Of a DNA stretch of 64,000 nucleotides, positions 1 through 64,000 are shown in pieces (positions within the stretch are counted from its first letter, which is position 1; each line of letters begins with the position of its first letter). The notes under the pieces are model-generated. The model made no database searches, had not been told where the DNA came from, and saw nothing but the letters and a program-made list of their open reading frames with translations. The stretch spans positions 3,907-67,906 of the forward strand of contig CAJXWJ010000008.1 of assembly GCA_913062925.1 (NCBI GenBank). The letters are read 5' to 3'. Origin of the DNA: an uncultured Pseudorhodobacter sp. Its GTDB lineage: Bacteria > Pseudomonadota > Alphaproteobacteria > Rhodobacterales > Rhodobacteraceae. The translations under genes were made by a program, and so were the position numbers.

Positions 1-129
1 GCCGGCAAAGGCCACGAAAGCCACGCCCCAAGCCATAATATTAAAAACTATCAGAAAACTTATCATCAACACGACATTCCGCTTTAACTGCGGCGTCGCG
101 GAATCGAAGATCCGGTTCAGCATCGTCAT
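1..129 (-). CDS. N-terminal 43 codons of a probable HoxN/HupN/NixA (NiCoT) Ni/Co permease, running off the window edge
   Basis: Not in ORF track. Reverse strand from 129 reads MTMLNRIFDSATPQLKRNVVLMISFLIVFNIMAWGVAFVAFAG, resembling NiCoT TM1 (FN-x-x-AW-x-x-AF-x-AF). Lies directly downstream of a cobalamin riboswitch. Confidence 0.6.
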   Translation of the reverse strand, partial: MTMLNRIFDSATPQLKRNVVLMISFLIVFNIMAWGVAFVAFAG

Positions 130-8308: not shown

Positions 8309-9213
8309 GCTGTCAGCAGTGGCTGGCCGGAAAAATGTGCGGCAAGGTTGTCGCGCTGCAATTGCCCCATCGCGCGACGGGTGGCCTCGGTGGCTGAACC
8401 TTGGTGCGGTTGCAGCAAGACATTGGCCAGCGGCTTGAACCGCGGGTTGATGGCGGGTTCGCCCTCAAACACATCCAGCGCAGCCCCTGCGATCTGATTG
8501 GTCTCGAGCGCAGTCAGCAAGGCGTCTTCGTCGATATTGGCCGCACGCGAGATATTGATCAGCATGCCATTCGGCCCGAGGGCGCGCAGCACCTCGGCGT
8601 TGACGATATGGCGGGTTTCGGCATTGGCCAGCGTGACCACAAACAGAAAATCCACATGCGCGGCCAAAGCCACGGGATCGGGGATATAGGTATAGGCAAC
8701 CGGCTTTTCGCTGCGCGCAGAATAGGCGATCTGCATGTCAAAGCCTTCCAGACGGCGCGCGATTTCGCTGCCAATCCGGCCCAGCCCCAAAATCCCCGCC
8801 TTGGCGCCGAAAAAGCGGCGTTGCAGCGGGAAATTCGCCGCCTCCCAAGCCCCCGAGCGGGCATGGGCATCGGCAGCAGGCACCGCACGGCTGAGGCCAA
8901 GCGCCATTGCCAGCGCCAGATCGGCGCAATCGCCGTCCAGCACCCCGGGGGTATTGGTGACACTGACACCACGCGCCTTGCACAGGCCAAGATTGATTGC
9001 ATCATAGCCCACGCCATTCACCGCAATCAGCTCGAGCTTGGGGCAGGCCTGAATAATCGCATCGGAAACGCCTGCGCCGCCGGTGGTGGCAATGGCGCGG
9101 ATCTCGCTGAGGTCTGGCGCAGCGCTCAGGTGATGCACATGGTAGGCCGCGTCGAGCGGGGTTTGATCCCATTCGGCATAGGGGCTGATTTGCAAGATAT
9201 CCGGTTTGGTCAT
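8296..9213 (-). CDS. D-isomer-specific 2-hydroxyacid dehydrogenase (GhrB/2-ketoaldonate reductase-like)
   Basis: GVGYDAI, GILGLGRIG, LINISRA, LDVFEGEP and PHQGSAT motifs. Confidence 0.9.
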   Translation of the reverse strand: MTKPDILQISPYAEWDQTPLDAAYHVHHLSAAPDLSEIRAIATTGGAGVSDAIIQACPKLELIAVNGVGYDAINLGLCKARGVSVTNTPGVLDGDCADLALAMALGLSRAVPAADAHARSGAWEAANFPLQRRFFGAKAGILGLGRIGSEIARRLEGFDMQIAYSARSEKPVAYTYIPDPVALAAHVDFLFVVTLANAETRHIVNAEVLRALGPNGMLINISRAANIDEDALLTALETNQIAGAALDVFEGEPAINPRFKPLANVLLQPHQGSATEATRRAMGQLQRDNLAAHFSGQPLLTAVTL

Positions 9214-10160
9214 AGCGTTCCCTTGGGTTGGGCGTGAATTTCCGCGGCAAAGCGCGCCGCAACAGGCGGCAAAATCGCCCCTGTGCGGGTGATAAGTCCG
9301 AAGGCCGCAACCTCGATGCCAAGGTCGATGGCCAGCGCACGGTAGGGCGCATCAGCGGCAGAGGCAAAGCACTCGGCGACAGTGCGCGCCAAGGGCGCGA
9401 TGCTGTCAGAATGCTGCAACAGCGCAAAGATCATCAAAAAGCTGTCCGTCGCCAGCACCTGTTTCGGGCTGGGCAGGCCGTGGGCGCGCAGGCGTTCCAG
9501 CACGGTACGGGTCAGGATCGCAGCGGGCGGCGGCATCACCCAATCATAGGCAGACAGATCGGCGGGCAAAAGCTTGGGTTTGCTTATCAAAGGATGGCTG
9601 CTGCGCACCACAAGGCTGACCGGCTCTGTCGCAATCGGTGTGATGTCAAACAGCGCACGGCTGGGGCCTTCGGGCAGGCGACCAATCGCAAAATCCAGAT
9701 TTCCCGCCAAAAGCTGCTCGCACAGCTGCTCCGAGCCTGCGATCTTGACCTCGGCAGAAATGCGTGGCGCATGCAGGCAGACTTCGCGCAGCGCCGGCAG
9801 CACACGGCCAATCGCCGGCCCCGTGACAGAGCCGATGCGCACATGGCCGGTCTCGCCCGCCGCCACCTCGGCGATATCGCGGGCGGCATCGCGCAATTCG
9901 GTCTGAATGCGTTGCGCGCGCAGGGCCAAAGCCTCGCCCACCGGCGTCAGCACCATACCACGCCCCGTGCGCAGATGCACCGGCGCACCGACGATCCGCT
10001 CGACCTCGGCCAAAAGCCGCGAGGCCGCAGGCTGGGCGATGCTCATCCGGTCCGCAGCCTGCCCGATCTGCCCCGTCTCGGCCAAAGCCGCAAGCAGGCG
10101 CAGGTGGCTGAGTTTCAGCCCCCGATGGGCAAGCGTATCGCTGTGCTGCGCAAGATGCAT
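9210..10160 (-). CDS. LysR-family regulator (GbpR-like)
   Basis: LKLSHLRLL...AAD.M.IAQPAASRLLAEVE HTH. Stop overlaps the dehydrogenase start. Confidence 0.9.
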   Translation of the reverse strand: MHLAQHSDTLAHRGLKLSHLRLLAALAETGQIGQAADRMSIAQPAASRLLAEVERIVGAPVHLRTGRGMVLTPVGEALALRAQRIQTELRDAARDIAEVAAGETGHVRIGSVTGPAIGRVLPALREVCLHAPRISAEVKIAGSEQLCEQLLAGNLDFAIGRLPEGPSRALFDITPIATEPVSLVVRSSHPLISKPKLLPADLSAYDWVMPPPAAILTRTVLERLRAHGLPSPKQVLATDSFLMIFALLQHSDSIAPLARTVAECFASAADAPYRALAIDLGIEVAAFGLITRTGAILPPVAARFAAEIHAQPKGTL

Positions 10161-10357
10161 ATCATTTCAGCCATAAATTACCTGCTTTGCATGTTCTAAC
10201 CACAGGCGTGTAGATTGCAACTGGGACTGAAGCAGGTAGCGATTTTTGAACCCAAAGCTCCGAGGCAGACGCGGGCTGTTGCCGCTGGTGCCCGCACGCG
10301 CGGCGTGGCATTCTGCCCCCTGCCCACAGTCTTATGGGCGCAATGCAAGGACAGACC

Positions 10358-11164
10358 ATGCCCGCAGCCCCAGCCGATTCCGCGCTTTACCGCGATCTCT
10401 TTGCCGATCTGGACAGCGCGCGGCTGTTTTCGGATGCCGCCGAGCTGCGCGCGATGCTGCTGGTTGCGGGGGCTTTGGCGCGTGTGCAGGGCGATTTGGG
10501 GCTGATCCCCTTGCAGGCCGCGGGCTTTATTGAACGCAGCGCACGCGAAGTGCAGCTTGACCCATCGGCCATGGCAGCCGAGACAGCCAAGCTTGGCGAT
10601 CCGGTTCCGGCCTTTCTGGCCGCCTTTCGCAAGGCAGCAGAGGCGCCCGATCTGATGCACTACCTGCATTGGAACGCGCAAAATCACGATCTGCACGCCA
10701 CCGCTCAGGCGCTGCGGCTGCGGCGGGTGATGGATCTGTGGCAGGCGCGGCTAGAGGTGCTGATCGCGCAGGGCATCAAAGGGCTGCGCGCGCATCAGAC
10801 CGCGCTGAGTGCCCTGCGCCCTGCGGTCGAGGTGGTCAGGCTTTCGGGCGATAACGCCGATCTGGCGGCGGCTTTGGCGGCGGCCTTGGGCCTGCAAGCC
10901 CCCAGCGCAGAGGCGCGCGGTTTGGCAGCGCTTGCCGCTTGGATGGCGGGGGTTTGTGGCTGTTTGGCCGATGATCTGGCCAGCCACGCCCCGCTGTTGC
11001 GCGCGCTTTCGCGGCAGGTGACGGCGCTTTCGGCGCTGATCAGCGAGCCTGCGCAAACCGCCAGCGAAGCGCGCTTTGCTGAATGGCTGGCGCTGGCGCA
11101 ACTTGCCATCTCGACCGGGCGCGCCTTGGCGCTTGCGGTCGAAATCGCAGCGCCGCAGCCTTAG
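10358..11164 (+). CDS. Shortened, catalytically degenerate member of the fumarase/aspartase (PcaB/adenylosuccinate lyase-like) superfamily
   Basis: N-terminus MPAAPADSALYRDLF...LFSDAAELRAMLLV.GALARVQG.LGLIP matches PcaB-like proteins. HWNAQNHD replaces H-x-GATSQD and there is no SSxMPxKxN signature. AAGGA RBS before ATG 10358. Confidence 0.7.
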   Translation: MPAAPADSALYRDLFADLDSARLFSDAAELRAMLLVAGALARVQGDLGLIPLQAAGFIERSAREVQLDPSAMAAETAKLGDPVPAFLAAFRKAAEAPDLMHYLHWNAQNHDLHATAQALRLRRVMDLWQARLEVLIAQGIKGLRAHQTALSALRPAVEVVRLSGDNADLAAALAAALGLQAPSAEARGLAALAAWMAGVCGCLADDLASHAPLLRALSRQVTALSALISEPAQTASEARFAEWLALAQLAISTGRALALAVEIAAPQP

Positions 11165-14069: not shown

Positions 14070-15566
14070 TTATGCAGCCTGATCGCCCGCCGAAGCGGCT
14101 TGGATCAGGGTTTCTGTCGAAAGTGCCGCACCCGACAGCTCGGCCACCACTTGGCCCCGGCTGAACACCACGGCGCGGTGGCAAATATTGGCGATTTCCT
14201 CGAAATCGGTCGAAACCACCAGCACCCCCATGCCCGAGGCAAGCGCTTGGAACAGCAGATGATAAATCTGCGCCTTGGCCCCCACATCGACGCCTGCGGT
14301 CGGGTCTTCGGCGATCAGCAAGCGCCGTCCGGTGTCCAGCCAGCGGCCCACCACCACCTTTTGTTGGTTGCCCCCCGAAAGCGCCTCGATGGCAAGGCTG
14401 GGGTCATTGGGCTGAACGCCCAGACGCGCGCCAAGGCGCTGCGCATGGCCAGCTTCGGTTTTGGCGGTCATGAACGACCACAGCCGCCGCCCGGTGGCCG
14501 AAGGGTTCAAAAAGGCATTCTCGCGGATACTCAGCGCAGGGGCCACCGATTCCACCACGCGGTCACGCGCGACAAAGCCGATGCCGGCGGCCATAGCCCT
14601 GCGCGCCGAGGTCAGATCAGGCGCCTGACCATCCAGCAAGATCGTGCCCGAATGTGGTTCCAAACCAAAGAGCGCGCGGCCAATCTCTTCGTGGCCTGCC
14701 CCACGCAGCCCGACCAGCCCCACCATCTCGCCGCGACGGATGGTCAGATCAATCGGGCCAGCCTTACGGGTCGCCAGCGCGGTTGCGGACAAAAGCTTGG
14801 GGCCTTGCTGGACGTCGGGGCGGTCAATCTCGCGGGTTTTGCGCCCGACGATCAGATCGACAAGGTCTTCGGCCGTGGTTTGCGCAGTGTCGCGCGCGCC
14901 CACCATTTGGCCATCGCGCAACACCGCCACGCGGTCGGAAATCTGAAACACCTCGTCCAAGCGGTGCGAGACATAGATCATCCCAACACCCTTGGCCTTC
15001 AGCGGCCGCAGCGCTGCAAACAGCCGTTCCACCTCATCGGCAGGCAGGCTGGCGGTGGGTTCATCCAGCACCAGAAAATCACATTCCACCGCCAAAGCGC
15101 GGGCGATCGCCACCAGCGATTTTTCTGTGCGCGTCAGGCTTGAGACCCGGGCCGTTGGTTCAAAATCTGCCTCGACAAGCGCAAGCGCTGCGCGCGCCCG
15201 CGCCTCGGTTGCAGGCCAGTCGATCCTTCCGCCGCGCTTGGGGTAGCCCACCGCAAGCGCGATGTTTTCGGCCACACTCATCCATTCGATCAGCCCAAGG
15301 TCTTGGTGAATAAAGGCCACCGCCTGTTTGGCCGCCAGCTTGCCGCTGATGTGTTTATAGGGCGCGCCATCGACCAGAACCTGACCACTGTCTGGCGCAT
15401 AAATACCGCCCAAGGTCTTGATTAGGGTTGATTTTCCAGCACCATTCTCGCCCAAAAGCGCGACAATCTCGCCCCGACGCACCTGCAAGGACACCCCGCG
15501 CAGCGCCCGCGTGCCGCCAAAGGATTTGACGATTGCGTCAAACACCAATCCTTCTTGCTGCGCCAT
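14070..15566 (-). CDS. Sugar ABC transporter ATP-binding protein (RbsA-like, two NBDs)
   Basis: GENGAGKST, LDEPT and LSGGNQQK motifs. Start set at ATG 15566 (MAQQEG). Confidence 0.93.
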   Translation of the reverse strand: MAQQEGLVFDAIVKSFGGTRALRGVSLQVRRGEIVALLGENGAGKSTLIKTLGGIYAPDSGQVLVDGAPYKHISGKLAAKQAVAFIHQDLGLIEWMSVAENIALAVGYPKRGGRIDWPATEARARAALALVEADFEPTARVSSLTRTEKSLVAIARALAVECDFLVLDEPTASLPADEVERLFAALRPLKAKGVGMIYVSHRLDEVFQISDRVAVLRDGQMVGARDTAQTTAEDLVDLIVGRKTREIDRPDVQQGPKLLSATALATRKAGPIDLTIRRGEMVGLVGLRGAGHEEIGRALFGLEPHSGTILLDGQAPDLTSARRAMAAGIGFVARDRVVESVAPALSIRENAFLNPSATGRRLWSFMTAKTEAGHAQRLGARLGVQPNDPSLAIEALSGGNQQKVVVGRWLDTGRRLLIAEDPTAGVDVGAKAQIYHLLFQALASGMGVLVVSTDFEEIANICHRAVVFSRGQVVAELSGAALSTETLIQAASAGDQAA

Positions 15567-15654
15567 TATCCCCCCCGCCTTGACGATTGCACCCCTCCTC
15601 GGGCGCATCATCCTTTGATCACATTTGCGGCAATGAGACTCTGAGTCAAGAAAA

Positions 15655-15670
15655 AAGTTATCGATAACAT
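15655..15670. promoter_or_regulatory. LacI-family GntR/IdnR-type operator
   Basis: AAGTTATCGATAACAT between the divergent ABC operon and glcG-like gene; near-identical to 18203-18218. Confidence 0.75.
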
Positions 15671-15751
15671 TTATCGTGATGCGCCGCGAAACTCTGGCGT
15701 TGTGGCAGGGCCTTGCATCGCCTAGGGTGACGCCAAATCAAAGGAGAGACC

Positions 15752-16174
15752 ATGACGTTTTTTGCCAACACCCTGCGCCTAACCCATAGCGCCACCTTGC
15801 AGATGCTGACCGCTGCCGTGGCGAAAGCCGAAGCCATGGGCCAGCCGCAATGTATCGTGATTGTCGATGCAAGCGGTGAGGTTTTGGGCAAAATTCGCAT
15901 GACGGGCGCAAAGTTTCTGAGCCTGCGCTCGGCCTTTGCCAAGGCGCAAACCGCAGCCTCGATCGGCGCACCGACAGAAAACGTGCCCGAAATCATGCGC
16001 CCCGCGCTTAGTCTTGCCACTCAGGGCGGCATCACTTGGTTGAAGGGCGGCTTGCCCATTCGCATCAAGGGCGAATTGGTCGGCGGCATCGGCATCGGCT
16101 CTGGCACCGGCGATCAGGATTACGAGGTGGCGCTTGCTGCTTTGGCGGCGATTGGCGCGGATCTGCCCGCCTAG
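15752..16174 (+). CDS. GlcG/HbpS-family protein
   Basis: IVIVDASG...RM.GA...S...A..KA.TAA and GG.PI...GE.VGGIG motifs. Confidence 0.85.
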   Translation: MTFFANTLRLTHSATLQMLTAAVAKAEAMGQPQCIVIVDASGEVLGKIRMTGAKFLSLRSAFAKAQTAASIGAPTENVPEIMRPALSLATQGGITWLKGGLPIRIKGELVGGIGIGSGTGDQDYEVALAALAAIGADLPA

Positions 16175-56293: not shown

Positions 56294-57139
56294 TCATGCC
56301 ATTGCGGCAATTGCGCTGGCTTTTGCCAAAAGCGCCTCTGCCATAATGATATGCAGGTTTTCGACGATCTTTCCATCCACAACCGCAACGCCCTGGCCTG
56401 CGGCCTGTGCCTCGGCAAAGGCGGCGATCTGGCGCGCGGCAAGCTCTAGCTCGGCTTCCGAGGGCGCAAAGGCTGCGTTGGCGATCTCGATCTGCGCGGG
56501 GTGGATCAGGGTTTTGCCGTCAAAGCCCATATCCCGGCCTTGGGTGCATTCGGCCAAAAGCCCGGCCTCGTCCTTAAAGGCATTATAGACGCCATCGACG
56601 ATGACGCGGCCATAGGCGCGCGCGGCCAACAAACACAGCCCCAAGCCCGCCTGCATCGGCAAGCGATCTGCGCGCATCCGGCTGCCCAATTCGCGCGCCA
56701 GATCATTGGTGCCCATCACCATGCCGGCAAGCTGCGGATGCGCCGCGATTTGCGCCGCATTCAGGCAGCCCAGCGCGGTTTCCATCATCGCCCACAGCGG
56801 CTTTTGCGGGGCAAGCCCTGCGACCGCGTCAAGTTCGGCGGGGGTGTTCACCTTGGGGATCAGCAGCGCCTCGACCTCGGCCATCGCGCCAAAACGCGCG
56901 ATATCATCGGCACCCCATGCGGTATCAAGCCCGTTGATGCGCACGATGCGCAACCGCGCGCCATAGCCCCCCGCCGCCAAAGCCTGCGCCAAAACCTCGC
57001 GCGCGGCGGCTTTCTCATCGGGGGCAACGGCATCTTCCAGATCAAAGATAATCGCATCGGCGGCCAGCCCGCGCGCCTTGTCCAAGGCCCGCGCATTCGA
57101 GCCGGGGATATAAAGCACAGAGCGGACGGGATGGGTCAT
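56294..57139 (-). CDS. mcl2: CitE-family CoA ester lyase-like protein, probably (3S)-malyl-CoA thioesterase
   Basis: RSVLYIPGS, IFDLEDAV, VRING, GTNDL, DGVYN and GFDGKTLIHP motifs; located in the mch-mdh cluster. Confidence 0.8.
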   Translation of the reverse strand: MTHPVRSVLYIPGSNARALDKARGLAADAIIFDLEDAVAPDEKAAAREVLAQALAAGGYGARLRIVRINGLDTAWGADDIARFGAMAEVEALLIPKVNTPAELDAVAGLAPQKPLWAMMETALGCLNAAQIAAHPQLAGMVMGTNDLARELGSRMRADRLPMQAGLGLCLLAARAYGRVIVDGVYNAFKDEAGLLAECTQGRDMGFDGKTLIHPAQIEIANAAFAPSEAELELAARQIAAFAEAQAAGQGVAVVDGKIVENLHIIMAEALLAKASAIAAMA

Positions 57140-59290: not shown

Positions 59291-60508
59291 TTAGGTTGCG
59301 GCGATCTGATCGGCCAGATAAGCGGCATCGCACCAGACACCCCAGATAAAGGGCGAGGCGCGGCTTGCCAGCCACGGCAGGCCAAGGAAATAAAGCCCGC
59401 GATGCTTGGTCACGCCGCGCAGATGATCCGGCCTGCCCTTTTCATCCAGCGCATCGACCTGCAACCAGCTGTAATCCAGCGCATAGCCCGTCGCCCAAAC
59501 GATCGAGGTGATCCCCGCCTGCGCCAGATCCAAGCTGCGCAGCGGGTGGGTGACGCAGTCTGGGTTTTCCGCGAAAATCCGCGCCTCGGGTTCGGGCGGG
59601 AAATCCAGACCATGGGCGGTGACATAGGCGTCGGCCTCGTCCAAAGTCGTCAGATAATGCCGATCACCACCGGCGATATTCTCGGCCAGATCCGCCGCAA
59701 TCTGCAAAACGCCGTTGTCATAGGCGCCGGTGCGGCCCAACAGCGTCATGCCGCGCGCGGCGAAAGCGCGGAAATCCACGGTATTGCCGCCATGCGCGCC
59801 GCTGACAGCGATGGTGACATGCTCCATTCCCTTGCGCCGCGCTTTGGCGTCCCAATGGCCCAAGACCCCCAGCCACCAGCAAAAATCCTTGCCGCGATAG
59901 CGGATCGGCGGGCGGTCGTGCGGACCCACCGAAAGATAAACCTTGCGGCCTGCACGCAGCAGCTCGTCGGCGATCTGCGAACCCGAGGCCCCCGCCCCCA
60001 CCACCAGCACAGCCCCCTGGGGCAGTTGCGCTGGGTTGCGATAGCCCGAGGAATGCAGCTGCATCATCCCCGCCGCCGCTGGCACATCTTGCGGGATCAG
60101 CGGGCGCTGAAACGGCCCAGTGGCCGAGACAACATTGCGCGCCTCGATCACGCCTTGGTTGGTCTGCACGCGGTACCCAGCCTCGATCGCCGCGACCGAG
60201 GTCACCTCGACGCCGCAGCGGATCGGCGTTTTGGTCATTGCCGCGACTTGTTCGAAATAGGCAACCATGCGATCTTTTGGGGCAAAACTCGCGGGGTCAA
60301 GATCGGGAAAATCCAAGATCGGGAAGCGGTCGTGCCAAGCCGGACCGTTTGCCACCAGTGAATCCCAACGCTCGCTTCGCCAGCGTTCGGCAATGCGGTG
60401 ACGCTCCAGCACCAGATGCGGCAAACCGCGCTCTGACAGCTGCGCGCTCATCGCAATACCGGCTTGCCCGCCGCCGATGATAAGCGTTTCGATCTGTTCC
60501 ACTGACAC
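59291..60508 (-). CDS. Flavin-dependent monooxygenase/oxidoreductase (FMO-like; HinH-like)
   Basis: IIGGGQAG, RWDSLVANGPAWHDRFP, LHSSGYRNP, VVGAGASGSQIA and VWATGY motifs; GTG start after GGAG. Confidence 0.85.
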   Translation of the reverse strand: MSVEQIETLIIGGGQAGIAMSAQLSERGLPHLVLERHRIAERWRSERWDSLVANGPAWHDRFPILDFPDLDPASFAPKDRMVAYFEQVAAMTKTPIRCGVEVTSVAAIEAGYRVQTNQGVIEARNVVSATGPFQRPLIPQDVPAAAGMMQLHSSGYRNPAQLPQGAVLVVGAGASGSQIADELLRAGRKVYLSVGPHDRPPIRYRGKDFCWWLGVLGHWDAKARRKGMEHVTIAVSGAHGGNTVDFRAFAARGMTLLGRTGAYDNGVLQIAADLAENIAGGDRHYLTTLDEADAYVTAHGLDFPPEPEARIFAENPDCVTHPLRSLDLAQAGITSIVWATGYALDYSWLQVDALDEKGRPDHLRGVTKHRGLYFLGLPWLASRASPFIWGVWCDAAYLADQIAAT

Positions 60509-60736
60509 CGCATGCTCCTTTGACGCCACGTTACGCTGTACTTAGGGCGGCAATGGGTTAGGGAAAACTATAATTTGATTCAGCCAAGCGTAGCCCAAGC
60601 TTACCCATGGCGGCCATATTTGATTAGCTAAAATGGATGCAATGCGACGAAAACCCTGTTATTGCTGAAGGTGGCCCAAGGCGGCTATCACTCATCCTGC
60701 GACATTTTGTCCACCCATCGAAAGGCTGCTGCCGTC

Positions 60737-61159
60737 ATGGCCAATCCGCACACGCGCTATCGCAAGTTCAACACCAAAGAGACCTACCCAGAGCAGAACT
60801 TGGACAATGATCTGTGCCAAGCTGTCGCCACGCGCGGCGGGCGCACCCTGTATTTGCGCGGTCAATGCCCGCAAAACCTTGATGACGCCAAGGATATCGG
60901 CAGCCATGATCCCGTCGAGCAGACGCATAAGGTGATGCAAAACATCCGCCAGCTGATCGAAGAGGCGGGCGGCAGTATGGAGCATCTGGTCAAGGTGGTG
61001 GTCTATATTACCGATGTGCGCCACCGCGAGGCGGTTTACCGCACCATGGGCGAATATATCAAAGGTGTGTATCCGGTCTCGACCGGGCTGGTGGTCACAG
61101 CACTTGCGCGGCCAAGCTGGTTGGTCGAAATCGACGGCACCGCCGTGATCCCGGATTAA
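60737..61159 (+). CDS. RidA/YjgF family enamine/imine deaminase (HinG-like)
   Basis: HTRYRKFNTKETYP..NLDNDLCQAV, LRGQ, PVSTG.VV..LA and EID.TAVI motifs. Confidence 0.88.
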   Translation: MANPHTRYRKFNTKETYPEQNLDNDLCQAVATRGGRTLYLRGQCPQNLDDAKDIGSHDPVEQTHKVMQNIRQLIEEAGGSMEHLVKVVVYITDVRHREAVYRTMGEYIKGVYPVSTGLVVTALARPSWLVEIDGTAVIPD

Positions 61160-61162
61160 GCC

Positions 61163-61831
61163 ATGACATTTTCTCTGATCGCACGCTGCACCACTTCGGG
61201 CCAATTTGGCATGGTGATCTCGTCTTCCTCGCCTGCGGTGGCGGCGCGCTGTGCGCATGTGCGCGCAAGCGTGGGCGTGGTGGCCAGCCAAAACATCACC
61301 GACCCCGCCTTGGGGCCTGCGGTGCTGGGTGCAATGGCCGAGGGGGCCACGGCAGAGCAAGCGGTGGCGGCACTGGCGGGGCGGGCGTTTATTGACTATC
61401 GCCAAGTGCTGGCGCTTGGCGCTGCGGGCGCGCCTGCGATCCATTCGGGCGCACAGGTCTTGGGGGTTTGGGCGGAAGCTTTGGGACCGCATTCGGCAGC
61501 GGGCGGCAATCTTTTGGCCAATGACGCTGTGCCCCAAGCCATGGTGGCAAGCTTTGAGGCCGCGCAGGGCCATCTGGGAGATCGGTTGATAGCAGCCTTG
61601 CAAGCGGGGCTTGCGGCCGGCGGCGAGGCGGGGCCGGTGCGTTCGGCGGGCCTCAAGATCGCGGATAAGCTTGATTGGCCCTTGGTCGATCTGCGCATCG
61701 ACTGGCATGATACCCCGATTGCAGCATTGGCCGAGGCTTGGACCGTCTACCGCCCGCAAATGTCCGCCTATGTGCAGCGTGCCCAAGACCCGACCGAAGC
61801 CCCCTCTTACGGCGTGCCGGGCGACGAATAA
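61163..61831 (+). CDS. DUF1028 family (Ntn-hydrolase-like) protein (HinL-like)
   Basis: MTFSLIARC, SSSSPAVAARC, SQN, GNLL, GGEAG..RSA.L and DLRIDWHD.P motifs. Confidence 0.88.
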   Translation: MTFSLIARCTTSGQFGMVISSSSPAVAARCAHVRASVGVVASQNITDPALGPAVLGAMAEGATAEQAVAALAGRAFIDYRQVLALGAAGAPAIHSGAQVLGVWAEALGPHSAAGGNLLANDAVPQAMVASFEAAQGHLGDRLIAALQAGLAAGGEAGPVRSAGLKIADKLDWPLVDLRIDWHDTPIAALAEAWTVYRPQMSAYVQRAQDPTEAPSYGVPGDE

Positions 61832-61856
61832 CGCCCTCATCCAGCGAAAGGCCAAT

Positions 61857-62795
61857 ATGCAAACACGTTTCACCTTGCGACAATTGGAATATCTGGTCGC
61901 CGTCGGGCGCTTTGGCTCGATCTCGCTGGCGGCACATCATCTGTCGGTCTCGCCGCCCTCGATTTCAAACGCCATTGCCCAGCTCGAGGCCGAATTTGGC
62001 CTGCCCGCCTTTGTGCGCAAACATGCTCAAGGCATGACGCTAACCCAAGCCGGACGCGCATTGATGGCGCAGGCGGTGCAGGTGCTGGAGGCAGCCCGCG
62101 CGCTGTCAAATCTTGCCGATCAGCACAATGGCACCGTGCGTGGCGATCTGAACGTTGGTTGCCTGCTGACCTTTGCCCAGATCATCGTGCCGCGCCTGCG
62201 CCGCGCCTTTACCACCGCGTTTCCCGAGGTGACCTTTCGCCAGTTTCAGTACCACCAAGCCGGTCTGATTGAGGCGCTGCGCGATGCAACCATCGACATT
62301 GCGATCACCTATGATCTGATGATCCCCGCCGATATGGAGTTTACCCCGCTGGCCACTCTGCCGCCTTTTGCCATGCTGCCAGCGGCACATCCTCTTGCCA
62401 CACGCTCTAGCCTTAGCCTTGCCGAGCTTGCGCCCTCGCCCATGATTTTGCTGGATCTGCCGATCAGTGGCGCCTATTTCATGTCGCTGTTTGATCAAGC
62501 AGGTGTCACCCCGCGTATTGTCGAGCGTAGCCATGACATGGCGGTTGTGCGGTCGCTGGTGGGCAATGATTTCGGCTATTCCGTCGCAAATGCCCGGCCT
62601 TTTGCGCCAACGGCCCCTGATGGCAAAGAGCTGGCCTTTGTACCGCTGACAGGCGGGCTTAAGCCCGTTCGGATGGGAATTTTGTCCACCGCGGGGGGGA
62701 AATCTTCGCTAACGGTCAAGACCTTTGTCAGCCTTTGCGAAAAGATGATCGATCCGACCATGCAGGCTCAAATCTCGATTAATGCCAAGGAGTAG
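61857..62795 (+). CDS. LysR-family regulator
   Basis: FTLRQLEYLVAV...GSI..AA..L.VS.PSIS.AI..LE and RKHAQG..LT.AG motifs. Confidence 0.92.
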   Translation: MQTRFTLRQLEYLVAVGRFGSISLAAHHLSVSPPSISNAIAQLEAEFGLPAFVRKHAQGMTLTQAGRALMAQAVQVLEAARALSNLADQHNGTVRGDLNVGCLLTFAQIIVPRLRRAFTTAFPEVTFRQFQYHQAGLIEALRDATIDIAITYDLMIPADMEFTPLATLPPFAMLPAAHPLATRSSLSLAELAPSPMILLDLPISGAYFMSLFDQAGVTPRIVERSHDMAVVRSLVGNDFGYSVANARPFAPTAPDGKELAFVPLTGGLKPVRMGILSTAGGKSSLTVKTFVSLCEKMIDPTMQAQISINAKE

Positions 62796-62798
62796 CGC

Positions 62799-64000
62799 AT
62801 GCGCGACCCGCGCTATGATATCCTGTTTCAGCCGCAACAGATTGGGCCGGTGACGGCAAAGAACCGGTTTTATCAGGTGCCCCATTGCAACGGTGGCGGC
62901 TACCGCGACCCATCGGCGGCGGCGGCGATGCGGGGGATCAAGGCGCAGGGCGGCTGGGGCGTGATCTTTACCGAACAGACCGAGATGCACCATTCCTCGG
63001 AAATCACCCCCTTTATCGAGCTGCGCCTGTGGGAGGATCAAGACATCCCCTCGATCGCCAAGATGGCGGCGGCGATGAAAACCCATGGCGCTTTGGCGGG
63101 GATTCAGCTGGCTTATTCCGGTATCAATGGCCCGAATATGTATACCAAGGAAGTGCCGCTTGCGCCCTCGGCCCTGCCCATTCGCACCTTCACCAATGAT
63201 CCGGTGCAGGCCCGCGCCATGGACAAAACCGACATTCGCAATCTGCGGCGCTGGTTTGTCACGGCCGCAAAGCGCAGCCAGACAGCGGGCTTTGATCTGA
63301 TCTGTCTTTACGGCGCGCATGGCTTTGGCATTTTCCAACATTTCCTGTCGCGCGCCACCAATCAGCGCAGCGACGAATATGGCGGCAGTCTTGAGAACCG
63401 CTCGCGCTTTGCCCGCGAGGTGATCGCCGATATGCGCGACGCGGTGGGCGACAGCATGGCGCTGACGCTGCGGGTGTCTTTGGATGAAAGCATTGGCGCT
63501 TTGGGCTTTTCCAATGCCGAGGTGCGCGACTTTATCGCGATGAACGCCGATCTGCCCGATCTGTGGGATTTGGCGATGGGCACATGGGAAGATTGCTCTG
63601 GCCCCTCGCGCTTTAAACCCGAAGCCGCGCAAGAGGTTTGGGTCAGCGGCATCCGTGCGCTGTCCAGCCGCCCCGTGGTCGGCGTTGGCCGCTTTACCTC
63701 GCCCGATGTCATGGTGCGGATGATCACCTCGGGCACCTTGGATTTCATCGGCTGCGCGCGCCCCTCGATTGCCGATCCGTTTTTGCCGGCCAAGATTGAC
63801 GCAGGCCGGATTGAAGACATTCGCGAATGTATCGGCTGCAATATCTGCATCACCGGCGACATGACCCAAGGCATGGGACGCTGCACGCAAAACCCGACTT
63901 GGATGGAGGAATGGCGGCGCGGCTGGCATCCTGAACAGATCGCCACCAAGGGCGAAAGCGACAGCGTGTTGATCATAGGGTCTGGCCCTGCCGGATTGGA
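62799..64000 (+). CDS. Trimethylamine/histamine dehydrogenase-family iron-sulfur flavoenzyme, 3' end beyond the window
   Basis: Not in ORF track. Reads MRDPRYDILF...KNRFYQVPHC30NGGG, LYGAHG, NQRSDEYGGSLENR, ECIGCNIC (C344/347/350), RCTQN, then the start of IIGSGPAGL. Confidence 0.92.
   Translation, partial: MRDPRYDILFQPQQIGPVTAKNRFYQVPHCNGGGYRDPSAAAAMRGIKAQGGWGVIFTEQTEMHHSSEITPFIELRLWEDQDIPSIAKMAAAMKTHGALAGIQLAYSGINGPNMYTKEVPLAPSALPIRTFTNDPVQARAMDKTDIRNLRRWFVTAAKRSQTAGFDLICLYGAHGFGIFQHFLSRATNQRSDEYGGSLENRSRFAREVIADMRDAVGDSMALTLRVSLDESIGALGFSNAEVRDFIAMNADLPDLWDLAMGTWEDCSGPSRFKPEAAQEVWVSGIRALSSRPVVGVGRFTSPDVMVRMITSGTLDFIGCARPSIADPFLPAKIDAGRIEDIRECIGCNICITGDMTQGMGRCTQNPTWMEEWRRGWHPEQIATKGESDSVLIIGSGPAGL

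Follow-up and report, generated by a model that had tools for sequence, protein, structure and literature searches.

Positions 59291 to 64000 of the 64-kb window (the whole 64,000-nt stretch of DNA analyzed here) likely hold a cluster for the catabolism of histamine and imidazole-4-acetate (ImAA), in which a histamine dehydrogenase would be the entry enzyme and the Hin pathway known from Pseudomonas would supply the lower steps. A preliminary description of this DNA had proposed such a hybrid pathway in a member of the Rhodobacteraceae, and our sequence comparisons support it: the flavoenzyme grouped with histamine dehydrogenases, the LysR-type regulator was HinK-like, and the other three genes matched a hinF-L-H module. 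The same description had placed a flavin-containing monooxygenase (FMO)-like gene divergent from genes for a RidA protein, a DUF1028 protein, a LysR regulator, and a flavoenzyme. All five were found intact, the flavoenzyme gene extending past the window end, with the following features.

59291-60508, minus strand: FMO-like, hinF-like FAD/NAD(P)H flavin monooxygenase (405 amino acids [aa]; Pfam Pyr_redox_3 and FMO-like)
60509-60736, between the FMO-like gene and the RidA gene: predicted divergent promoter/operator region (conserved block in the alignment of hinF upstream regions)
60737-61159, plus strand: hinL-like RidA/YjgF-family protein (140 aa; Pfam Ribonuc_L-PSP, E = 1.6e-20)
61163-61831, plus strand: hinH-like DUF1028 protein of the Ntn-hydrolase superfamily, probable amidase (222 aa; Pfam DUF1028, E = 3.5e-60)
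61857-62795, plus strand: hinK-like LysR-type regulator, embedded in the operon (312 aa; best PDB matches 6M5F and 3FZV)
62799-64000, plus strand, cut by the window end: predicted histamine dehydrogenase, an Oxidored_FMN flavoenzyme (ATG at 62799; N-terminal 400 codons inside the window)

For the FMO-like gene, the GTG at 60508 was preferred over a start at 60529, and the 405-aa product aligns end to end with its homologs. Only 3, 25, and 3 nt lie between successive plus-strand genes, a spacing compatible with a single operon. Sequence past the window was taken from six metagenome contigs, retrieved by an exact match of the LysR protein and ~99.3% identical to the window (72 to 85 mismatches in 12,144 nt). 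The flavoenzyme has 689 aa in these contigs (L001:10943-13012), so that the window gene would stop at ~64868.

The flavoenzyme

A PDB search with the 400 aa encoded in the window returned the histamine dehydrogenase of Rhizobium sp. 4-9 (6DE6; E = 1e-236), followed by that of Nocardioides simplex (3K30; 6e-155) and by trimethylamine dehydrogenase (TMADH; 6e-111). At full length, the scores were 1,231 bits for 6DE6 (identity of 75.7%, rising to 81.8% over the 400 aa in the window), 811 bits for 3K30 (55%), 657 bits for 6L6J, a relative devoid of the FMN-linking cysteine, and 520 bits for TMADH (1DJN). The comparison with characterized enzymes that the preliminary description had called for thus places the flavoenzyme among the histamine dehydrogenases.

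The three motifs reported earlier from the sequence alone (PHC30, YGAH, and CxxCxxC) were all present. P28-H29-C30 aligns with the HC of 6DE6, 3K30, and TMADH at the 6-S-cysteinyl-FMN position, which is Cys30 in the Rhizobium enzyme and Cys35 in that of N. simplex; Cys30 is kept here, and the residue numbering matches that of the Rhizobium enzyme. The Y171-G-A-H174 motif and all the cysteine ligands of the 4Fe-4S cluster (C344-x2-C347-x2-C350 and C362) are also conserved. We compared the pocket, tunnel, and catalytic residues named for the Rhizobium enzyme (PMC10180351), and all 17 were identical (Q60, I69, F72, E74, N110, F131, Y171, A173, H174, G175, F176, R225, T262, W263, D265, D354, and M355). 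These comprise the histamine-type pocket (Gln60, Glu74, Trp263, Asp354, Ile69, Phe72, Asn110, and Phe176) and the catalytic triad Tyr171-His174-Asp265. The aromatic bowl of TMADH (Tyr60/Trp264/Trp355) is not formed, since Gln60 and Asp354 replace Tyr60 and Trp355, as in histamine dehydrogenases. The 689-aa protein of the near-identical contigs aligns end to end with 6DE6 and has the full three-domain length of ~690 aa, including the ADP-binding domain. Orthologs of the flavoenzyme encoded in plasmids formed a distinct group (63 to 78% identity), with a clear gap to the next paralogs (at most 52%). From these data we assign the flavoenzyme, with high confidence, as an ortholog of histamine dehydrogenase.

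The Rhizobium (UniProt Q60I59) and N. simplex enzymes share with it the TMADH-type architecture, the 6-S-cysteinyl-FMN cysteine, the CxxCxxC...C ligands, and a length of ~690 aa. They are known as isolated enzymes and biosensor reagents, whereas the window enzyme is known from its sequence. Commercial assays of histamine in fish make use of histamine dehydrogenase, and we found no account of the genomic or pathway context of either characterized enzyme in the searchable literature.

The lower-pathway genes

In Pseudomonas, HinF is an FAD monooxygenase (EC 1.14.13.5), HinL a RidA-type enamine deaminase, HinH an amidase, and HinG another amidase (EC 3.5.1.8) (PMC6467879, Table 3). This corrects the letters that the preliminary description had given (HinH for the FAD oxidoreductase, HinG for RidA, and HinL for DUF1028): the FMO corresponds to HinF, RidA to HinL, and DUF1028 to HinH. 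The operon of P. aeruginosa PAO1 has the order hinFLHG (PA5393 to PA5390, the latter annotated as "probable peptidic bond hydrolase") and is induced ~240- to 2,200-fold by histamine (PMC8231116).

There are no PDB entries for the Pseudomonas HinF, HinL, and HinH proteins, and orthology to these genetically proven proteins was bridged by means of the PDB-derived HinK sequence and a HinK-adjacent operon of Burkholderia. A tblastn search with the PAO1 HinK revealed orthologs with 80 to 83% identity on Burkholderia replicons. In B. multivorans, the HinK ortholog (82% identity) adjoins an operon encoding FMO, RidA, DUF1028, and an M20 protein named "argE," i.e., in the order of hinFLHG. The FMO, RidA, and DUF1028 proteins of the window were 64.7%, 56.0%, and 52.9% identical, respectively, to the members of this operon. 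The same order of four genes was found in Caballeronia and Streptomyces, an arrangement that thus recurs in different phyla, and the window FMO was 59 to 66% identical to the FMO heading such operons in Caballeronia, Streptomyces, and Leisingera. The window RidA was 87 to 89% identical to those in the histamine dehydrogenase clusters of Leisingera and Pseudohalocynthiibacter. Among seven DUF1028 orthologs, M1-T2, SSSS, and GGE.GPV.S were invariant, the first of them as expected of an N-terminal-nucleophile hydrolase; the only solved relative of this protein was 2IMH. HinF-type FMO, HinL-type RidA, and HinH-type amidase genes are therefore adjacent and in hinFLH order in the window, and we assign the trio by homology as a hinF-L-H module, in which the HinF-like FMO is the probable ImAA monooxygenase.

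Both PGAP and JGI call the M20 gene of hin-type clusters acetylornithine deacetylase (argE) throughout (e.g., L007:14281-15432, L008:14067-15233, and L093:10969-12132; L numbers denote the contigs and loci compared). Its place as fourth gene of the FMO-RidA-DUF1028-M20 operons suggests that it encodes HinG, the N-formyl-aspartate deformylase. If so, the "argE" naming would be a systematic misannotation.

The regulator and its putative operator

The best PDB matches of the LysR protein were 6M5F and 3FZV (E = 2e-50, 35% identity over 300 aa), far ahead of the next family, CysB (7.5e-25). 6M5F is listed as the HinK of P. aeruginosa (PMC11495319), a LysR regulator that binds ImAA and activates hinDAC and hinFLHG (PMC8231116). 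The cluster LysR is the only HinK-like gene of the window, and, with HinK as by far its best solved relative, we class it as HinK-like.

An alignment of the sequences that precede hinF in 18 loci revealed a conserved block, TTAGGGACAGGCTAA...GAAATCGTAATTTTCG. In the window, the intergenic region holds a T-N11-A box, TAGCCCAAGCTTA, at 60591-60603 on the plus strand and the element AAATTATAGTTTTC at 60563-60576 on the minus strand. The pattern AAATNNTANTTTTC had one match in the 64 kb (0.01 expected), exactly at the intergenic site, and a single match ~60 to 100 bp upstream of hinF in each of four loci that had not been used to derive it. We infer that the HinK-like LysR binds this conserved operator-like element upstream of hinF, a target for which the motif is suggestive. 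Scans of the intergenic region for sigma-70 promoters and for inverted repeats (seed 6) found nothing. In the sequence just past the dehydrogenase gene, a terminator scan gave two sites on the minus strand, where chance alone would give 0.7.

Proposed pathway and alternative explanations

In the proposed route, the steps of the dehydrogenase, HinF, and DUF1028/RidA were assigned by homology and gene context, and those of aldehyde oxidation, deformylation, and promoter activation were inferred. The 689-aa flavoenzyme (6-S-cysteinyl-FMN, 4Fe-4S, and ADP) would convert histamine to imidazole-4-acetaldehyde and NH3 by oxidative deamination, its electrons probably passing to electron transfer flavoprotein (ETF), as judged from TMADH and from the etfAB genes linked in related clusters. 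An aldehyde dehydrogenase (ALDH) encoded elsewhere would then yield ImAA, which the HinF-like monooxygenase would hydroxylate to imidazolone-acetate (EC 1.14.13.5). The HinH-like DUF1028 protein and the HinL-like RidA would open and deiminate the ring to give N-formyl-aspartate, with a division of labor that is itself tentative, and a HinG-type M20 enzyme, not encoded at this locus, would release aspartate. The HinK-like LysR is encoded inside the ridA-DUF1028-lysR-hadH operon, and its most likely signal is ImAA; it would then activate both divergent promoters through the conserved operator containing the T-N11-A box.

Several observations weigh against this assignment. The pathway is incomplete at this locus: homologs of ALDH, the M20 deformylase, ETF, aspartase, and a transporter were found neither in the 64-kb window nor in the ~2.6 kb past the dehydrogenase gene. 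Tblastn searches of the window with ALDH, M20, dodecin, ETF alpha/beta, aspartase, HpaB, and ATP-binding cassette (ABC) transporter components of the Leisingera and Pseudohalocynthiibacter plasmids returned nothing but an unrelated ABC ATPase at ~15 kb. The preliminary description was right that ALDH and an amidohydrolase are absent, although the latter is not HinF-like as it was labeled: the missing enzyme is HinG (EC 3.5.1.8), for which no M20 homolog was found in the window or downstream. A search with an M20 protein of Pseudotabrizicola gave no match named Cypionkella, the genus to which the window proteins point (see below), among the best 120. Moreover, the link to the genetically proven Pseudomonas HinF, HinL, and HinH is indirect, passing through the HinK-adjacent operon; the LysR shares only 35% identity with HinK, with ImAA as its predicted ligand; and the Rhizobium dehydrogenase also oxidizes agmatine and 1,3-diaminopropane at ~10 to 13% of the rate with histamine (PMC10180351).

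The missing genes raise the question of whether the genes function as proposed within a cluster that is truncated or decaying and does not allow growth on histamine as a carbon source, perhaps serving detoxification or nitrogen scavenging only. Both the dehydrogenase and the deiminase step would release NH3, whereupon N-formyl-aspartate might be excreted or handled by unrelated enzymes. Related clusters do contain ALDH and M20 genes, which the window, its downstream sequence, and its closest relative (L013) all lack; there is also no linked transporter and, as noted above, no Cypionkella protein among the best M20 homologs. Nevertheless, the five frames are intact and highly conserved, without pseudogene remnants, and no degraded argE, dodecin, or ALDH was found downstream of the dehydrogenase gene. 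Generic ALDHs are plentiful in such genomes, and the composition of related loci varies, with 6 of 20 dehydrogenase loci devoid of linked ALDH and 9 devoid of linked M20. The hin genes of P. putida are scattered over four loci (PMC8231116), indicating that unlinked genes are normal in this pathway. We therefore regard decay as unlikely, if still worth weighing. About equally doubtful is a variant in which the lack of ALDH and HinG is purposeful: the cluster would be a truncated, self-regulated route that strips two of the three histamine nitrogens as ammonia (by the dehydrogenase and by RidA/DUF1028 deimination) in nitrogen-poor fresh water rather than a route of carbon catabolism, with DUF1028 and RidA as imidazolone-acetate hydrolase and N-formimino-aspartate deiminase (EC 3.5.3.5).

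It is much less probable that the flavoenzyme acts on another amine (agmatine, putrescine, another biogenic amine, or an amine of the nicotine pathway such as 6-hydroxypseudooxynicotine) and that the FMO, RidA, and DUF1028 proteins degrade another N-heterocycle. Characterized histamine dehydrogenases do show side activity on agmatine, putrescine, and 1,3-diaminopropane (PMC10180351), the TMADH family includes nicotine-pathway paralogs, and some related loci hold Rieske oxygenases, class III aminotransferases, or HpaB-like hydroxylases. Yet the flavoenzyme is 76 to 82% identical to the most histamine-specific of the characterized enzymes and identical at every named pocket residue, and its plasmid orthologs stand clearly apart from the next paralog group. 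The HinK-like nature of the linked regulator and the match of the neighboring enzymes to the ImAA module also speak against another substrate; a nicotine-pathway Pno-like assignment was rejected on score, pocket residues, and gene context. On the same three grounds we dismissed a trimethylamine or dimethylamine dehydrogenase, which the JGI name ("dimethylamine/trimethylamine dehydrogenase") and the shared fold and cofactor motifs would allow, given a TMADH score of less than half that of 6DE6, the replacement of two residues of the aromatic bowl, and the lack of linked genes for handling methylamine or formaldehyde.

Related clusters and their distribution

The histamine dehydrogenase reading is also in line with clusters elsewhere. 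A plasmid of Leisingera methylohalidivorans (NC_023146.1) encodes FMO, RidA, DUF1028, ALDH, LysR, histamine dehydrogenase, dodecin, and M20, followed by a four-gene ABC transporter. A plasmid of Pseudohalocynthiibacter aestuariivivens (NZ_CP049040.1) encodes FMO, RidA, DUF1028, ALDH, histamine dehydrogenase, and M20, as well as LysR and an ABC transporter, with aspartase and ETF alpha/beta genes in divergent orientation. The same parts were found in a looser grouping in a Roseateles replicon. The first two clusters share the families and gene order of the window and are annotated there merely in generic terms. Identity to the window proteins was highest for RidA (87 to 89%) and histamine dehydrogenase (83 to 84%) and lower for DUF1028 (61 to 66%), HinF (59 to 62%), and LysR (49 to 52%). 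Both differ from the window by an ALDH gene between the DUF1028 and dehydrogenase genes, the M20 "argE," an ABC transporter, and either dodecin or ETF and aspartase. The window cluster represents a chromosomal, minimal form of five genes, whereas these two clusters are plasmid borne.

A HinF alignment was used to scan a single genome from each species, and the best 80 of at least 591 loci were retained. Among these 80 loci, 49 had RidA, 46 had DUF1028, and 20 had a homolog of histamine dehydrogenase within 10 kb. Sixteen of the 20 linked dehydrogenases were at least 66% identical to the window enzyme and four only 54 to 56%, including three from Actinomycetota. ALDH was linked in 14 of these 20 loci and M20 in 11; three lacked both, like the window, one being its closest relative, from a Cypionkella metagenome-assembled genome (MAG; L013). 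No locus of the genus Pseudomonas was among the best 80 of the at least 591. The arrangement of dehydrogenase and Hin genes is widespread in sequenced genomes and not special to the window. The homologs in the Actinomycetota MAGs (L070, L081, and L082) are of the Nocardioides type, 54 to 56% identical to the window enzyme and at most 10 kb from hinF-RidA-DUF1028, which indicates that the pairing of dehydrogenase and Hin genes spans phyla.

Other genes recur in these loci. In several clusters (L007:14082-14288, L042, and L056), the gene directly after that for histamine dehydrogenase encodes dodecin, a flavin-storage protein. L008, L042, and L056 have linked genes for ETF alpha/beta, and L039 and L050 for one subunit each. 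The linked dodecin and ETF genes offer a hint of flavin handling and of the electron acceptor. A Rieske oxygenase gene accompanies hinF in the Cypionkella MAG and in Caballeronia (L011:4786-5934); extra genes near hinF in the former lie at L013:3831-5018 and L013:6821-8203, and it also has a class III aminotransferase. In about seven loci (e.g., L008:16318-17832), hinF is accompanied by an HpaB-like hydroxylase gene. These oxygenases and the aminotransferase may act on substituted histamines or provide other routes of entry.

Across the plasmids of PLSDB, HinK homologs and DUF1028 genes had nearly identical taxon distributions: 245 records carried the former (Klebsiella, 106; Acetobacter, 15; Pantoea, 14; Leisingera, 13) and 239 the latter (105, 15, 14, and 12, respectively). 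More than 100 records of Klebsiella pneumoniae plasmids, and some of Escherichia coli plasmids, carry DUF1028 together with a HinK-like LysR (~59% identical to the PAO1 HinK). In pKP02022 (NC_023334.1, IncFIB/IncFII), the sole K. pneumoniae plasmid examined, RidA, DUF1028, and M20 genes lie at 8562-10848 and the LysR gene nearby at 15192-16154. This resembles an incomplete module for imidazole-acetate carried by clinical plasmids.

Relation to known histamine pathways

The Hin pathway of P. putida U and P. aeruginosa PAO1 (hinC, hinD, hinFLHG, and hinK) and the window cluster have in common the order HinF, HinL, HinH of the lower module, a HinK-like LysR, ImAA as the presumed intermediate, and aspartate as the presumed end product. 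They differ in the entry step, catalyzed by the aminotransferase HinC in Pseudomonas and, as predicted, by a flavin/Fe-S dehydrogenase in the window, where HinD (ALDH), HinG (M20), HinA (transporter), and HinI (aspartase) are unlinked. Moreover, the window regulator lies inside the catabolic operon, and hinF is divergent instead of first in the operon. A putative histamine pathway of Brevibacterium also joins the Hin lower module to an entry enzyme that is not an aminotransferase, but this enzyme is a copper/topaquinone (TPQ) histamine oxidase and not a dehydrogenase of the TMADH family (PMC6467879).

Our searches of the open literature on histamine dehydrogenase clusters, HinF, DUF1028, and PA5390 to PA5393 turned up no Hin pathway entered through a dehydrogenase. 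The cluster is thus a variant, not yet described, of an established pathway; joining the two parts is logical, the arrangement is widespread, and the window instance is minimal and incomplete at its locus, a matter of confident functional annotation rather than surprise. A 2021 review, where it cites the original P. putida study, gives hin genes as common in Pseudomonas; the range of the proposed route is wider than that reported, taking in Alpha- and Betaproteobacteria and some Actinomycetota. Such clusters place histamine dehydrogenase, the published genetic context of which we did not find, as the putative entry enzyme of a complete route from histamine to aspartate, probably linked to ETF.

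The cluster proteins carry public names that either are generic or mislead ("flavin-containing monooxygenase," "putative flavoprotein involved in K+ transport," "NAD(P)-binding protein," and "dimethylamine/trimethylamine dehydrogenase"). Our assignments would change "FAD-dependent oxidoreductase" or "TMA/DMA dehydrogenase" to histamine dehydrogenase, "flavoprotein involved in K+ transport" to ImAA monooxygenase, DUF1028 to HinH-type amidase, and "acetylornithine deacetylase ArgE" to probable N-formyl-aspartate deformylase.

Genomic surroundings

Proteins in the same exact-sequence clusters as the window proteins are labeled Cypionkella sp., and we take the host to be a freshwater member of this genus. 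Cypionkella belongs to the order Rhodobacterales; the family Rhodobacteraceae, proposed earlier for the host, is its former placement, and it is now assigned to the Paracoccaceae.

The inspection of sequence beyond position 64000 that had been advised showed that the cluster ends with the dehydrogenase gene. In the near-identical contigs, this gene is followed by a 42-codon open reading frame, by DUF2948 and murA genes on the opposite strand, and by a tRNA-Thr gene. The other flank carries mdh, a TauE-family gene, genes of the ethylmalonyl-CoA pathway, and sdhCDA. Housekeeping genes on either flank thus delimit the cluster to exactly five genes. A mesaconyl-CoA hydratase gene (PF19315; 54469-55494) and an HpcH/HpaI-family lyase-like gene (56294-57139) are located between sdhCDA and mdh, shortly before the cluster; they look like ethylmalonyl-CoA pathway genes and ordinary housekeeping surroundings. 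The tRNA-Thr(GGT) gene downstream of murA (L001:15454-15528) corresponds to about 67310-67384 in window numbering, outside the window itself. All six near-identical contigs stop at most ~60 nt past it, and this common end points to a repeat, an rRNA operon, or a variable island at the tRNA gene.

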